64,000 nucleotides of DNA, from contig JAWSVD010000029.1 of the NCBI GenBank assembly GCA_033852095.1, forward strand, positions 78,077 to 142,076, given 5' to 3'. Source of the stretch: Granulosicoccaceae bacterium. GTDB lineage: Bacteria > Pseudomonadota > Gammaproteobacteria > CALCKW01. The translations under genes and the position numbers were made by a program. The notes under the pieces are model-generated. The model did no database searches. It had not been told where the DNA came from and was given only the letters and a program-made list of their open reading frames with translations. This document shows positions 22,370 to 41,478 of this stretch, in pieces; positions within the stretch are counted from its first letter, which is position 1, and every line of letters starts with the position of its first letter.

Positions 22370-22482
22370 GTATTGGCACCTGGGGGCGGGCTTGAGATCC
22401 GCCGTCAACTATTCGGCGACTGTGCGCAACACAGGAAACGGCCTAACCCCAGAGACAAAACAAAACAAAACAAACGGCCAGC

Positions 22483-35553: not shown

Positions 35554-36126
35554 TTAAGCCAACGACGTCACCCGCAGCTGCGCCGAGTCTCTGAGCAAAT
35601 CAATGCTGCCTACCTCCACATCACTGATGGACGCATCGACGCGCGACCTGAGGTCTCGCAGCAGCTCCTCTCGGTGCTCCTGCTTCAGGTTATCGACCCG
35701 GTCATATACCACCACCCGAGAGAAACTCCGCGGCGCGAACAGCTGGGTCTCCGCACCCGCCACCATCAGGCACAAGAAGGCGTTCAACAGCGCGAGTTCG
35801 AGCAATGTGATGGGCCCGACCGCCGCCATCAGCGACATGACAATGACGATGAACAAATAGGTCATGTCCCGCAGGGATATGGCCTCGGTGCGGTACCGCA
35901 ACATGGAGAGCACGGCAAACAAACCGAAAGCAAAGCCCATCGATATGTCCACGTCGTGCATCAGCGCGCTGATGATGTAGACGCCGTGGCCAAAGAGGTA
36001 GAAGCCAAACATAGCATCTCGACTCGCTAAGTGCCGGAAATACACGACCCTCAGCAAAACAGTCAAGACAACAAAGTTGATTAAAAGTCGGAGAATAAAG
36101 TCTGAGGAAAGCGATTCACTGATCAC
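35554..36126 (-). CDS. DUF4956 membrane protein
   Basis: MGFAFGLFAVLSMLRYRTEAISLRDMTYLFIVI motif and C-terminal GSIDLLRD..L.V domain. Confidence 0.85.
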   Translation of the reverse strand: MISESLSSDFILRLLINFVVLTVLLRVVYFRHLASRDAMFGFYLFGHGVYIISALMHDVDISMGFAFGLFAVLSMLRYRTEAISLRDMTYLFIVIVMSLMAAVGPITLLELALLNAFLCLMVAGAETQLFAPRSFSRVVVYDRVDNLKQEHREELLRDLRSRVDASISDVEVGSIDLLRDSAQLRVTSLA

Positions 36127-36159: not shown

Positions 36160-36987
36160 TCACGCCGCCAGAGGGCGTGCAATTTTGTGGAACAAATTTC
36201 GTTTCAAATTTGCATCAGCGGTGTGGTACACGCCCATGCAATATTTACTGAAAGAGCATTGACGAATGCGGTGACGCTTGGCCCACTGGAAGAACGGTGA
36301 TTTTCGGCAGTGACTGCCCTGCTTCAGCTCCACCACAATCCACGGGCCAATATTCCAGTGCAAGTTGCGGCCGTGGGTGTCGCTGAAATCGAGGTTCACG
36401 TCAATCGTCAAGCGCTCACCCTGCGCTTCATTGGCCAGGGCAATGCGTTGATAACCGCTGGCCTGTACTTTCACGAGATCGTCCGGCTGCTCAAGCCCGC
36501 AGTCGCGCATAAATGCAAGCGAGGTCGGGGTGATGGCCCGGCTCGCAGAGCTGACCTTGATGCGTTGTTTGTTGGTGCGCTTTTTGTTGTTTTTAAATTT
36601 GACCTCCAAATACGATGTACCACTGTCCACGTAGGTTCTGCAACGCACTTTGTAGCGATTCACCTGGCCGTTGTGGTGCGCCGCGTAGAAAGCAAAATCC
36701 CGCGTGTCATAGTAGTCATTCATATAATCACAACAGCGCTTGCCATCAATTTCGAGCATGCTGTAGTGCACCTGCATGCTGTCGAGCAGATCAGGCAACA
36801 GCGCGCGCGGCACCACAAATTTACTGTCCACCCTGTCCATCAGAGCCGCGTTCTTGAGGTCTGCCAATCCGTGCCCTGTGTAGGCTTGAATTTCTGCCAC
36901 ACAATCCGCCGGGCCAGCTGCCGCTAGCGCCACAACGTCTTCGGTTTCGGCTTCGACCGAATGCTCAACACTTGTACAACTGTCCAA
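36160..36987 (-). CDS. VTC-domain (CYTH/polyphosphate polymerase-like) protein
   Basis: RVDSKF, YYDT, YKVRCRTY, YLEVKFK, YQRIAL, ERLTID, VELK and FSKY are the conserved CYTH/VTC tunnel residues. TTG start with AGGTGG RBS. Confidence 0.85.
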   Translation of the reverse strand: MDSCTSVEHSVEAETEDVVALAAAGPADCVAEIQAYTGHGLADLKNAALMDRVDSKFVVPRALLPDLLDSMQVHYSMLEIDGKRCCDYMNDYYDTRDFAFYAAHHNGQVNRYKVRCRTYVDSGTSYLEVKFKNNKKRTNKQRIKVSSASRAITPTSLAFMRDCGLEQPDDLVKVQASGYQRIALANEAQGERLTIDVNLDFSDTHGRNLHWNIGPWIVVELKQGSHCRKSPFFQWAKRHRIRQCSFSKYCMGVYHTADANLKRNLFHKIARPLAA

Positions 36988-37325: not shown

Positions 37326-39149
37326 CTACTGGACATTCGACACGCCTTGAGTGGCCGTGAAGGTCGCGAAATCGCTGCCCCCGCTGTAACTTCCGCTGCT
37401 CAGCAAACCATCCTCAATGTCGCCACTCATGCTGCCACCGACGCTGACGGTGTAAGCAGTGCCCGCCGTCAAGCTAGGCGCTGAATAGACAAACGAAGCG
37501 AAGGATTTGCTCGGTGCGAAGCTCAGCAAGGAATTGCTCGAAGCGTCGCGAATGTTGATCGCCGTGCCCGCGGACTGCATGCCCGACAGCGCCAGCTTGA
37601 GCGAATTCTGCGCGGACGAAGCGCTGGGTGCCTGTGCCATGCCAGCACTGCCAGCGGCCACCAATACACCGCCACTGATAACAAAGCTGCCGTCGTAGTC
37701 GAGCGCGCCATTGCCGCCGCCAGTGGGCCCGTTCACCAACACCGTGCCGCCGCTCATGGTGATTGATCCATTGGCATCCAGGCCATCGCCCTGGGCGTCG
37801 ACGACAATACGACCACCGGTGATGTTCAGCAGATTGCCCTCTGCGGTCACGGCCGCTGCTCGCGCACCGCCACCACCAAAACCAGGCCCCTGCCCACCGC
37901 CCGAGCCGTCGTTGCCGCCCGCCACGTTGATGCCATCATCAGAGGAGACAACGTTCACGCTGCCGCCATTGACGTTGATGATGGTGGCCTCGAGGCCTTC
38001 ATAGGATTCCGTGACGACGATCGAGCCCGCGTTGACCGTCAACTGGGTGTCGGCGTGTAGCCCGTCGTCCCCTGTCGCTATGTTGAAGTTGCCGCCGTTC
38101 ACCTCGATGATATAGCCCGAGTGCATCGCGTCATCGGGCGAGTCGAGCAGCAGCGTGCCGCTACTGACTTCGATCACCACGCCCGCCTTTAAGGCCTTGG
38201 CCGAATCCTCAGCGGAAATCACCTGGGTGTGCCCGCCGGCGGTGGTGATGTCCAGGGTGGCACCGCCGCTGACCAGAATATCGCTCGCCGCTTGAATGCC
38301 GTCCGCCTGCGCGGCCACGTGTAGTGTCCCGCCCTCTACCGAGACATAGCCCTTGGCCGCGTCGCTGTCGTTGTTGGATCGCAGCCCATCGCCACCGGCT
38401 GTCACGTCGACGGCGCCGCCTAACAACACCAGGTAGTCCTTGCCGTCTATGCCGTCGTCCTGGGCTATCACCGTCAGGTTCTCAGCGTTCAATACCAAGC
38501 CGTCTTTAGAGGTGATCCCGTCTGCGTACTGACCCGTCACCAGCAGGTTGCCCGCGCCGATGATACTGAGATCGTCGGAGCTGAAGACTGCCGCGTTCGG
38601 CTCATCCAACTCCGCGTCCGGGTAGACGTAGCTGGTCGCGTCGGTGAGGCGATTGTCCGTACCGTCCAGCACCACCACGACTGTCTTGTCAGCCTGCTCC
38701 ACATTGATAGCGGCACTGCTGCTGTGATTAATGTCCACATTGTCGAGCAACAGCCACACGGTACCGTCGGCCTCGCTGTCAACCAGCACGCCGCCGTCGG
38801 TGGTCGCACCGCTCAAGCTATAGACGCCCGGCTCGGAGATCGTCACTTGCGCACCCAGTGCGGCAGCGCCGTTGCCGGTCACGCTGACCGTGCTGCCGTT
38901 GAAGACTATCGCTGTGCTACTGCTGCCGTAGAGATAATCCGCAGCGTCATCGTGGTGCGGCTTGTTTTCTACGGCGGCCGCTGTGGCCAAGTCCGCGATA
39001 TCTGTCGTGTCAGTGCTCTCGCTTGTATCTGTGCTGCCGAGCAGATCAGGATCTTGCGTGTCCGCGCTATCACAGCCCGCAGTGGTCGCCGCAAGGGCCA
39101 GCCATATCAAGCTCGCCAGTTTTTTCTTTTCCATCATCAAGTGGTGCAA
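37326..39149 (-). CDS. Cthe_2159-family (DUF4353) beta-helical carbohydrate-binding lipoprotein
   Basis: Lipobox TAG-C; VTI..PG.Y.LSG, EPNAAVFSSDDL.I.G.G.L.V, many DG-I/L repeats (DGITSKD, DGIDGKD, DGIQA, DGLHA, DGLDANG), GNGALDYDG...GG. Start could be 39137-39149. Confidence 0.85.
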   Translation of the reverse strand: MHHLMMEKKKLASLIWLALAATTAGCDSADTQDPDLLGSTDTSESTDTTDIADLATAAAVENKPHHDDAADYLYGSSSTAIVFNGSTVSVTGNGAAALGAQVTISEPGVYSLSGATTDGGVLVDSEADGTVWLLLDNVDINHSSSAAINVEQADKTVVVVLDGTDNRLTDATSYVYPDAELDEPNAAVFSSDDLSIIGAGNLLVTGQYADGITSKDGLVLNAENLTVIAQDDGIDGKDYLVLLGGAVDVTAGGDGLRSNNDSDAAKGYVSVEGGTLHVAAQADGIQAASDILVSGGATLDITTAGGHTQVISAEDSAKALKAGVVIEVSSGTLLLDSPDDAMHSGYIIEVNGGNFNIATGDDGLHADTQLTVNAGSIVVTESYEGLEATIINVNGGSVNVVSSDDGINVAGGNDGSGGGQGPGFGGGGARAAAVTAEGNLLNITGGRIVVDAQGDGLDANGSITMSGGTVLVNGPTGGGNGALDYDGSFVISGGVLVAAGSAGMAQAPSASSAQNSLKLALSGMQSAGTAINIRDASSNSLLSFAPSKSFASFVYSAPSLTAGTAYTVSVGGSMSGDIEDGLLSSGSYSGGSDFATFTATQGVSNVQ

Positions 39150-39316
39150 CTCCAGTTTTTAAGCCCCGGCCATACCACAGATAGCTGTGTCGGCACATGC
39201 GTGTTCGTGTTACTCACCGCATATTCTGTGCTTACTATGGCTCGCAAATATGGAGTTGCTGTGAAGATTATCTGACGAATATAGGCAGTGCCAGCTGAGC
39301 TTGCTATACATGCAGG

Positions 39317-40784
39317 ATGAACTTAAGAATTTGGCACAAACTCGCCCTCGCCCTGTGCATCGGTATCAGCCTACTGATGCTGGCGATGGCCTACGTCTCC
39401 AGTTACGGCGTTGAGCACAGCTTTAGAAACTACCTCAATACGCAACAGCAACAGCGGGCGCTACAGCTGGAAGAACAGCTCATTGAAGATTATGAGCAGC
39501 GTGGCGACTGGCGTTTCATCCAGGACCAGCAAGAGTGGCACGCCTACCTGCATTGGATCGAAGACGACGGCATGCCGCACAAGGGGCCTGATCCGCACCC
39601 CGACAAGAACAACGACAGCCATTCACCTGGCCGTTCACCGGGAAACGCGCCCAAACGCGCAGGCAAAGGCTCCAAGCACCGCTTCTCACTCACTGATGCG
39701 GACAAGCAGCTGCTGTTCGGCGCGGCAATGGACGAGCAGAAACACCACGACACCGCCTTGCAGCTGCGCGGGGAAACCATCGGCTATTTGCACTACCGGC
39801 CCTTTAACGCTGGCCACATGAGCAAAAAGGACCGGGCATTCCTGCAGCAGCAGCACAGCGCGCTGATCCACCTCGCCTGGATCAGTTTTGTACTCGCCGG
39901 TGTTTTCTCTTGGCTGGCCTCCGCCTATCTGCGCAGCCGCATCCGACCGCTGTCGAACTTTTCGCAGCAGCTGTCCAACGGCAATTACGACAACAAATTG
40001 AGTGTGCCGGGCAATGATCAGCACGATGAACTGGGGCAACTGGGGGCGGACCTGAACCACCTCTCCCAGGCGCTGGCGCAGGGGAAATCCGCACGGGAAC
40101 GCTGGGTTGCCGATATCGCCCATGAGCTGCGTACGCCGCTGTCCATACTGCACGGCGAGATCGAAGCCATGCAGGACGGCATTCGCCCACTCGATCAAGC
40201 TGCTCTACAGTCCTTGCTCAGCGAGACCACCCAGCTGAGCCGCATCGTGGAGCAGTTGCGCAAACTGAGCCAGGCGGAAATGGGCGAGCTGCACATCGAG
40301 CGCAGCGATTGTGACCTGGCCGAAATCCTGCGAAACGTCAGCGATAACTTCTCGGCCCGCTTTGCTGCCGAAGAGATCGCGCTCACGCTGCACGTACAGG
40401 CAAACACCGCCCACCGCTGCTGGGGTGACGCTAGCCGCCTGCATCAACTGCTCAGCAACCTGCTGGAAAACAGCTTGCGCTACACCTGTGCAGCTGGCCA
40501 ACTGGCCAACTGGCCAACTGGAGATAAATCTGCACACGGCGGATGAAGAAATCTGTGTGGTGTTTGAGGATTCCGAGCCCGGAGTAAGTAACGAGCAACT
40601 TCCTCTGCTGTTTGAACGGCTCTACCGCGCGGAAAATTCCCGCAACCGCAAGACCGGAGGATCCGGCCTTGGCTTGTCTATCTGTCAGGCGCTGGTGCGC
40701 GCTCACGGCGGGCACATGAACGCCGAACACGCCGCCCAAGGCGGATTAAAAATCACCGTGAAGCTGCCCGTCCATCATGACTAA
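39317..40784 (+). pseudogene. BaeS-like sensor histidine kinase frameshifted by an 8-bp tandem repeat
   Basis: TM-periplasmic-TM-HAMP, H-box DIAHELRTPL and N-box NLLENSLRY lie in the frame ending 40546. G1 (EDSEPG), F (LFERLYR) and G2 (GGSGLGL) boxes lie in the frame ending 40784. Removing 16 bp (40502-40517) joins them into one 483-aa ORF. Confidence 0.88.
40494..40521 (+). repeat. Octanucleotide tandem repeat (CTGGCCAA)3 + CTGG
   Basis: ctggccaa at 40494, 40502 and 40510, plus partial ctgg at 40518. Confidence 0.95.
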
Positions 40785-41478
40785 AATCATTGCCATCGTC
40801 GAAGACGAAGAAAAAATCGCCCGCATCCTGATCGACTACCTCGAAGCCGAGGGTTATGCCTTGCGCTGGATTGCGGACGGGAAGCAAGCTTCACAATGGC
40901 TTGCAGAAAACACCTGTGATCTGATTTTGCTGGACCTGATGTTGCCCGGAAAAGACGGCATGACCCTCTGCGATGAGATCCGCAGGCTCTACCAAACACC
41001 TGTTTTCATCATCACCGCCAAAGCTGAAGAGCTGGACCGGATCAAGGGTTTGGAAACTGGCGCTTATGACTATATTTGCAAACCCTTCAGCCCGCGCGAA
41101 GTCGTGGCCAGGGTCAATGCTCTGTTTCGGTTGCTTGCGGCGCAAGGTTTGAACACGTTGACGGAACAGCCGGCTCAGCGCATGCAACTCGAGCCGCATA
41201 TCCACAGGGTGAGCTACGCCGGCACATCAGCTGACCTGACCCGCGCCGAATACCGCCTGCTGGAAAACATCTCCGCCAACCCAGACAGTGTCTTCTCACG
41301 CCAAGCGCTGGTGCATCTGATCTACGACGACAACCGAGTGATCTCCGACCGAACGATCGATTCACACATAAAAAACCTGCGCAAGAAGCTCGACAACATC
41401 GGTCTGCGGCACAATCCGATCCGCACCGTTCACGGGGTCGGGTACAAGTGGAATAGTTTCGAAGAGACCCTTGAATAG
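40777..41478 (+). CDS. OmpR/BaeR-family response regulator
   Basis: IVEDE, LLDLMLPG, DYICKPFSPREV, DRTIDSHIKNLRKKL, RTVHGVGY. Overlaps the restored kinase 3' end. Confidence 0.93.
   Translation: MTKIIAIVEDEEKIARILIDYLEAEGYALRWIADGKQASQWLAENTCDLILLDLMLPGKDGMTLCDEIRRLYQTPVFIITAKAEELDRIKGLETGAYDYICKPFSPREVVARVNALFRLLAAQGLNTLTEQPAQRMQLEPHIHRVSYAGTSADLTRAEYRLLENISANPDSVFSRQALVHLIYDDNRVISDRTIDSHIKNLRKKLDNIGLRHNPIRTVHGVGYKWNSFEETLE

Follow-up and report, generated by a model that had tools for sequence, protein, structure and literature searches.

A slippage-prone octanucleotide repeat of varying length in the frameshifted sensor histidine kinase gene of a marine gammaproteobacterium

To our knowledge, repeat-driven phase variation of sensor proteins has so far been described mainly in host-adapted pathogens, for example Bordetella and Campylobacter. 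The (CTGG)3 sequence in lacI of Escherichia coli is reportedly a frameshift hotspot at which slipped mispairing adds or removes entire units, a finding said to go back to Farabaugh and colleagues in 1978. In Bordetella pertussis, phase variation of the sensor kinase gene bvgS occurs at a C6/C7 homopolymeric tract, as recounted in the part of PMC1891110 that cites Stibitz et al., 1989; according to that account, the frameshift truncates the kinase and silences the regulon. Phase variation has also been reported for the flgS/flgR two-component system of Campylobacter jejuni, in which short repeats within the kinase gene and the regulator gene give rise to frameshifts (reviewed in PMC3930126).

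The tract described here lies within a sensor histidine kinase gene of a free-living marine gammaproteobacterium and is of a kind already known, namely a repeat-mediated frameshift in a regulatory gene; its value lies in a documented natural length polymorphism. Its best mechanistic analogue would be the lacI (CTGG)3 sequence, which is also a three-unit direct repeat starting with CTGG and acts as a hotspot without regulatory purpose, although the lacI unit is 4 nt long and was defined in the laboratory whereas the kinase tract has an 8-nt unit and shows natural polymorphism between strains. The likeness to bvgS lies in a slippage-prone coding repeat in a sensor kinase gene. In the account of bvgS given in PMC1891110, however, the unit is of 1 nt, ON and OFF forms occur within cultures and the switch is tied to a phenotype, whereas the present tract has an 8-nt unit, has been recorded in OFF alleles only and is known here from sequence alone. 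The flgS/flgR system differs in that its tracts are homopolymeric or heteropolymeric, that pseudorevertants have been described and that its switching between ON and OFF is reversible and has been measured (PMC3930126). The locus also resembles ordinary tandem-duplication pseudogenes, where one extra microhomology-flanked copy breaks an intact gene that is young as a pseudogene and carries no other lesion. Unlike these, the kinase tract is demonstrably unstable, since its length has changed again, or has been exchanged, between very close strains.

The features of the locus are listed below by their position in the window, i.e. the whole stretch of 64,000 nucleotides that was analysed; the sister strain is represented by the 2.5-copy assemblies discussed further on.

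35554-36126, minus strand: DUF4956 membrane protein, usually paired with VTC-domain genes in bacteria (Pfam and VTC loci elsewhere)
36160-36987, minus strand: VTC-domain (polyphosphate-polymerase-like) protein (Pfam)
37326-39149, minus strand: exported lipoprotein of the Cthe_2159 family, divergent from the kinase gene (Pfam), mosaic relative to the sister strain
39150-39316, no strand assigned: divergent intergenic region between the kinase and lipoprotein genes, differing from the sister strain by substitutions at 10 of its 167 bp
39317-40546, plus strand: upstream frame of the sensor histidine kinase, 409 aa (translation; HAMP and HisKA by Pfam)
40451-40637, plus strand: block separating the window from all three 2.5-copy assemblies, comprising C/T at 40451, the extra unit and 11 substitutions at 40565-40637
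40494-40521, plus strand: perfect octanucleotide tandem repeat, (CTGGCCAA)x3 plus CTGG, 3.5 copies, 16 bp longer than the inferred ancestral single unit
40522-40784, plus strand: remainder of the kinase ATPase domain with intact G1, F and G2 boxes, in the +1 frame and not translated with the kinase in the window allele
40777-41478, plus strand: OmpR-family response regulator (Pfam), the ATG of which overlaps the stop codon of the intact-frame kinase (ATGACTAA)

The 409-aa product consists, in order, of a signal/transmembrane segment, a periplasmic sensor, HAMP, HisKA (H-box AHELRTP) and the N-box, and ends in a 15-aa out-of-frame tail followed by a TGA stop at 40544-40546. HAMP and HisKA were matched by Pfam in this product and HATPase_c profile positions 30-110 in the downstream frame (40524-40781), so that the break falls within the ATPase domain, with the N-box NLLENSLRYT before it and the DxGxG, F and G2 boxes after it. 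A BaeS-like HisKA kinase carries all of its modules in one polypeptide; here, HATPase_c is divided between two frames, and HAMP, HisKA and a complete HATPase_c are joined only in 1- or 4-unit alleles constructed in silico. At 40494-40521 the sequence reads CTGGCCAACTGGCCAACTGGCCAACTGG, i.e. three full CTGGCCAA units followed by CTGG, for which Tandem Repeats Finder returned a period of 8, 3.5 copies, 100% matches and a score of 56, the top score in the window among repeats with a period of at least 7. As at contingency loci, the unit lies within a coding region and is not a multiple of 3 in length. Rebuilding the kinase gene in silico gave products of 401 aa (OFF) with 0 units, 483 aa with an intact C-terminus (...YTCAAGQLEINLHT...) with 1 unit, 400 aa (OFF) with 2 units, 409 aa (OFF) with the 3 units of the window allele and 491 aa, the frame being restored, with 4 units. 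An initial annotation of this DNA had placed three copies of the octamer directly after the N-box, had worked out the frame for one to four copies, had put the truncation ahead of the G1, F and G2 boxes and had described both halves as otherwise intact. These statements were confirmed by the reading of the tract and Tandem Repeats Finder, by the rebuilt alleles and by the Pfam domain placement, respectively, and by the finding that every catalytic motif is intact with no second inactivating lesion.

The downstream regulator matches Response_reg (4.5e-29) and Trans_reg_C (1.4e-19) in Pfam and shows the features of the OmpR family, i.e. a receiver domain with acidic pocket, phospho-Asp, Thr and Lys (D10, D53, T81 and K103 being visible in the translation) and a winged helix. 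The overlap of its ATG with the kinase stop suggests that it is probably translationally coupled to the intact-frame kinase, and no obvious Shine-Dalgarno sequence precedes the ATG. In the intergenic region between the kinase and lipoprotein genes, no direct or inverted repeats of a regulator-binding type were found, and promoter and terminator scans were uninformative. Elsewhere in the window, a perfect pentanucleotide repeat, (ACAAA)x4, is located at 22455-22474 within a 161-codon open frame.

Other alleles of the tract were found in three Logan contigs (L006, L007 and L022) from the separate metagenome runs SRR26541461, SRR26541454 and SRR26541458, which contain near-identical, syntenic DNA and carry (CTGGCCAA)x2 plus CTGG, i.e. 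2.5 copies as compared to 3.5 in the window. The contigs from SRR26541461 and SRR26541454 encode a 399-aa product and have the gene order of the window, and the contig from SRR26541458, located via an identical response regulator, has 2.5 copies too; this allele is also OFF. Repeat number thus differs between close strains, as known from contingency loci and as the initial annotation had expected of different genomes. Since extra units are present, and their number differs, in four assemblies that are ~99.5% identical elsewhere, copy number is truly polymorphic and an assembly artefact is very unlikely. The outcomes that the annotation had named as speaking against a switch, a uniform single copy or a tract fixed at three copies with other lesions, were both absent from these four assemblies. 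Among 5.8 billion proteins, the sole close relative is a 399-aa product ending ...YTCAAGQLANWR, which corresponds to the two-unit reading, the next match being of 38% identity; the 90% cluster of this product has two members only, itself and the 409-aa product of the window. No 483- or 491-aa allele (1 or 4 units) was found in this protein collection, in which a search with the downstream ORF returned the window's own fragment only. When JGI metagenome contigs were scanned for a DNA pattern anchored in both flanks, with a gap of 10-40 nt, 0 matches were obtained, and a DNA search of 40 relatives returned no orthologue. Instead of the ON and OFF alleles expected in nature of a contingency locus, OFF alleles only have been recorded, within a thin sampling of two known alleles from four assemblies, three of which come from one run series. 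A second slippage event in the kinase gene is seen in a 3-bp CAG indel in a CAGCAGCAG run (window 39844-39846), which separates the window from the sister strain; the site is a Q-run in the periplasmic/TM-proximal part of the kinase.

The ancestral length of the tract can be read from intact homologues, to which the 1-unit protein aligns gap-free over the N-box and the G1, F and G2 boxes. When the 1-unit kinase was aligned with its 119 best intact homologues, the T390-N399 segment (YT-xxxG-xLxI) was 10 residues long in 120/120 sequences, i.e. in all 119 homologues. The ancestral state is therefore a single unit, to which the window adds 16 bp, since the nearest intact homologues have the one-unit length without exception (119/119). 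The 4-unit form adds 8 aa (GQLANWPT) at this site of fixed length. The 1-unit kinase itself has C391 where D is present in 100/120 sequences and A393 where G or P is present in 111/120. In the ancestral CTGGCCAACTGG, CCAA is flanked on either side by CTGG, a 4-bp microhomology, and the 1-unit ON form has no repeat remaining to slip.

It appears reasonably probable that the kinase has recently been inactivated by an 8-bp tandem duplication that keeps slipping, which is not the same as a proven switch. Slipped mispairing between the CTGG copies of CTGGCCAACTGG would duplicate exactly CTGGCCAA, and this first duplication would have produced the out-of-frame 2.5-copy allele, in which the longer tract would offer a better substrate for slippage. 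A further unit, gained in place or imported by recombination, would then have led to the 3.5-copy window allele, still out of frame. In both alleles, translation ends 230-250 nt short of the regulator start, and the stop ahead of the ATP-binding half implies a truncated kinase lacking that half. Coupling would probably be lost and the regulator under-expressed as well, a polarity suggested by the overlapping ATG and its lack of an obvious Shine-Dalgarno sequence. Reversion would be possible in principle through the loss of one or two units, the gain of one or two units or recombination with an intact allele. The recorded alleles amount to drift from one OFF state to another in two genes that seem no longer to be constrained, and a recent duplication, which the initial annotation had offered as its alternative, is the better reading. 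Against it, no second inactivating lesion is present, yet at ~0.5% divergence this is to be expected of a young pseudogene too; the 10:1 synonymous tract in the ATPase frame (p=6e-6) and the non-significant contrast with the pooled neighbours, both described below, and the thin sampling of alleles also count against it.

Several further mechanisms were considered. Hairpin-driven instability was not distinctive, the ssDNA fold being weak, with an energy of -7 to -8 kcal/mol and a z of -1.1 to -1.8. An IS excision footprint, i.e. two retained 8-bp target duplications, is conceivable as the origin of the first extra unit but unneeded given the CTGG microhomology, and would leave the third unit unexplained. 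Programmed ribosomal frameshifting or transcriptional slippage past the break has no supporting feature, and the shift needed would not be the same in the two alleles.

Relative to the sister strain, the kinase gene upstream of the repeat has 2 synonymous and 4 nonsynonymous substitutions (T126S, Q149R, A244P in HAMP, and L379F) besides the CAG indel, and the response regulator has 0 synonymous and 1 nonsynonymous substitution (A96G, in the conserved GAxDY motif and private to 2/3 contigs). The corresponding figures are 5 synonymous and 0 nonsynonymous for the aldehyde dehydrogenase gene (Aldedh), and 0 and 1 for the VTC and DUF4956 genes (1.4 kb). Outside the repeat block, the 5 nonsynonymous and 2 synonymous substitutions of kinase and regulator together (Nei-Gojobori) fit neutrality (binomial p=0.66), as compared to 1 nonsynonymous and 5 synonymous in the pooled neighbours Aldedh, VTC and DUF4956; the contrast is not significant with the three pooled (Fisher p=0.10) and reaches p=0.028 against Aldedh alone. 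These counts give a hint, suggestive only, of relaxed constraint on kinase and regulator.

The pattern is different 3' of the repeat, where 11 substitutions fall within 73 bp (40565-40637), 10 of them synonymous in the ATPase frame (p=6e-6 vs neutrality). This 10:1 ratio indicates that purifying selection acted on the ATPase frame in the lineages from which the divergence stems. The window-specific differences are contiguous and form a 187-bp block which is probably one recombination tract spanning the repeat; the third unit may therefore stem from recombination and not from in-place slippage, and the 3.5-copy tract may have come with DNA of a more divergent lineage, as hinted by this block. 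No paralogue can have supplied the divergent 73 bp, for which the closest further match within the genome is 69-74% identical. The Cthe_2159 lipoprotein is 95% identical to that of the sister strain (L007:8014-9822), and 74/77 differing codons lie in two blocks, codons 1-190 and 441-540, the differing codons being 49 synonymous and 28 nonsynonymous. This distribution is that of a recombination mosaic in a surface protein. The first block runs on into the intergenic region. Together, the ATPase tract and the mosaic lipoprotein indicate an exchange of short stretches of DNA between this locus and a more divergent lineage.

Control of the VTC system by the kinase had been proposed in the initial annotation, and adjacency is the one feature that would point to it. 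The closest intact kinase homologues occupy five loci (three metagenome contigs, one same-genus genome and a paralogue on contig C290 of the genome itself), all of which are in unrelated neighbourhoods, none being near VTC, DUF4956 or Cthe_2159 genes; one adjoins an LTXXQ-family periplasmic gene (faint Pfam match). A search with the sensor-domain protein returned distant intact homologues only, with 31% identity in the same-genus genome and 28% in the C290 paralogue. No two-component system was found at three VTC loci examined. Downstream of the best VTC homologues on long contigs (L025 and L026) lie DUF4956, a phosphate-selective porin (Porin_O_P) and, at one locus, CotH, and these VTC-DUF4956 and porin surroundings point to a putative phosphate-related module. 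At one of the two loci, an Exo_endo_phos gene is located upstream of VTC-DUF4956. A literature search found no paper on DUF4956 together with VTC, and none on the SRA runs. A further VTC gene, 78% identical to that of the window, is carried by a Logan contig of 3361 bp (L027) from SRR26541459, of the same run series as the 2.5-copy assemblies, where it lies 950 nt from an aldehyde dehydrogenase gene. Here, no kinase, regulator or lipoprotein separates VTC-DUF4956 from the aldehyde dehydrogenase gene, and the spacer is without a long ORF, its only trace of the window's arrangement being a 52-bp match (77%) to 39228-39279 in the kinase/lipoprotein intergenic region. This arrangement indicates that the kinase-regulator-lipoprotein segment is a variable insert relative to the L027 lineage. 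The conserved linkage expected of a dedicated VTC regulator was therefore seen at none of the five kinase and three VTC loci, and the proposed control finds no support in conservation, homologous kinases and VTC clusters being unpaired elsewhere.

These data also bear on other explanations of the tract. A working contingency locus, at which slipped-strand mispairing would cycle the gene between OFF (2, 3, 5 or 6 units) and ON (4, 7 or 1) and so vary the two-component system and its targets, possibly the divergent Cthe_2159-VTC-DUF4956 genes, is conceivable if rather unlikely. Such a locus would fit a copy number that differs between strains otherwise ~99.5% identical, a unit that is not a multiple of 3, a regulator and two kinase halves that are intact, strong purifying selection on the downstream frame in the divergent tract, and the precedents of phase-variable sensor kinases in bvgS and flgS/flgR. 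Loops of 8 nt, moreover, escape mismatch repair. However, the ON allele was seen nowhere in the protein collection or the JGI contigs and the observed change is from OFF to OFF, in a tract of 2-3 units only, whereas classical contingency loci have many more. A 4-unit ON allele would insert GQLANWPT where 119 homologues do not vary in length, and a 1-unit ON allele would destroy the repeat, a return to OFF then needing a new duplication; the lack of a conserved kinase-VTC pairing and the hint of relaxed constraint on kinase and regulator also argue against it. The reversible ON/OFF switch of the initial annotation is accordingly not supported, as both recorded alleles are OFF and no 1- or 4-unit allele was found, and its four-copy restoration, while in frame, would bring an 8-aa insertion absent from 119/119 homologues. 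A more far-reaching version would take the repeat of this free-living marine gammaproteobacterium for a genuine octanucleotide contingency locus, with a tract that persists across recombining lineages and a 2-3-4-unit cycling that would switch the BaeS-like kinase and, by polarity, its regulator, and would diversify the adjacent fast-diverging surface lipoprotein and VTC-like genes; this we regard as plainly unlikely.

It is also improbable, and markedly so, that the truncated product is itself selected as a kinase-dead, phosphatase-competent TM-HAMP-DHp sensor which would keep the regulator unphosphorylated and cause OFF alleles to be kept. The 409-aa product does retain HAMP, HisKA and the H-E-x-x-T motif (AHELRT), which serves phosphatase activity in HisKA kinases, and because this motif is intact the putative phosphatase role raised in the initial annotation is mechanistically reasonable; in addition, two different OFF alleles persist in several samples. 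The DHp domain of EnvZ alone reportedly has phosphatase activity, as Zhu, Qin, Yoshida and Inouye are said to have shown in 2000. EnvZ is comparable as a HisKA kinase without its ATP-binding domain, a module that the kinase truncation retains, but its fragments were engineered, stable and studied in vitro, whereas the natural kinase product carries a broken domain stub and is deduced from the DNA. Against selection of this product, its ~40 residues of broken ATPase domain and out-of-frame tail are likely to be unstable, the target regulator would probably be under-translated once coupling is lost, A244P (HAMP) and the regulator A96G (GAxDY) accumulate in the sister strain and, without a cognate kinase, there would be hardly any phosphorylated regulator for it to act on. 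An assembly or sequencing artefact, the true sequence having one unit and the extra units being errors, is scarcely credible. The source is a fragmented draft of 642 contigs with a contamination estimate of 4.5%, but the extra units occur in four independent assemblies, three of which agree exactly on 2.5 copies; graph-loop collapse or expansion is impossible because the k-mers commonly used in assembly exceed the 20-28-bp tract in length, and the insertion of an exact 8-bp unit is no known error mode of short- or long-read platforms.

If the tract does switch, it would extend repeat-driven two-component phase variation to an environmental marine bacterium, with an unusual 8-nt unit, and would provide a handle on the unstudied bacterial VTC/DUF4956 genes alongside. 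On present evidence, the recent duplication represents a clean natural case of a microhomology-mediated, gene-breaking event whose length is still changing, and it cautions that copy-number polymorphism by itself is no proof of a regulatory switch. For annotation, the kinase here and in the sister strains is best recorded as a frameshifted, probably non-functional gene, and the neighbouring cluster should not be presumed to be kinase-controlled.

Across the 6.3-Mb genome, a primitive 8-mer is repeated perfectly three or more times in tandem at just two places, against ~0.0015 expected by chance (6.3e6 x 4^-16), which places the kinase repeat beyond chance. Tandem 8-mers of two copies are no more frequent than chance predicts (94 found vs 96 expected), and there is no genome-wide octamer-repeat system. 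The octamer was also rejected as an over-represented word or uptake-type signal, its frequency being ~3x the mononucleotide expectation with two-copy tandems at chance level. On contig C172 (33-555, minus strand; L018, a 4.5-kb contig), a perfect (GCAG)x9.5 repeat, read as LPACLPAC..., splits an RNase H-like gene (MPHLQIFTDGS...) between two frames, and these 9.5 units make it, compared with the kinase tract, the better candidate for classical repeat-driven phase variation. A promoter-proximal heptamer repeat, (GGCGTCA)x3.9, is present on contig C65 (9730-9756; L019 731-757) in the 80 nt that separate a HAD-like hydrolase gene from a 502-aa mannitol-dehydrogenase-like ORF. Other perfect repeats with units that are not multiples of 3 are CCCAG x6.2 (C209:5618), GTGGC x6 (C342:9152), CCTGT x5 (C326:4651), CGGTGTT x4.9 (C493:474) and AGAAA x5 (C572:494), most of which look intergenic or lie in short open frames.
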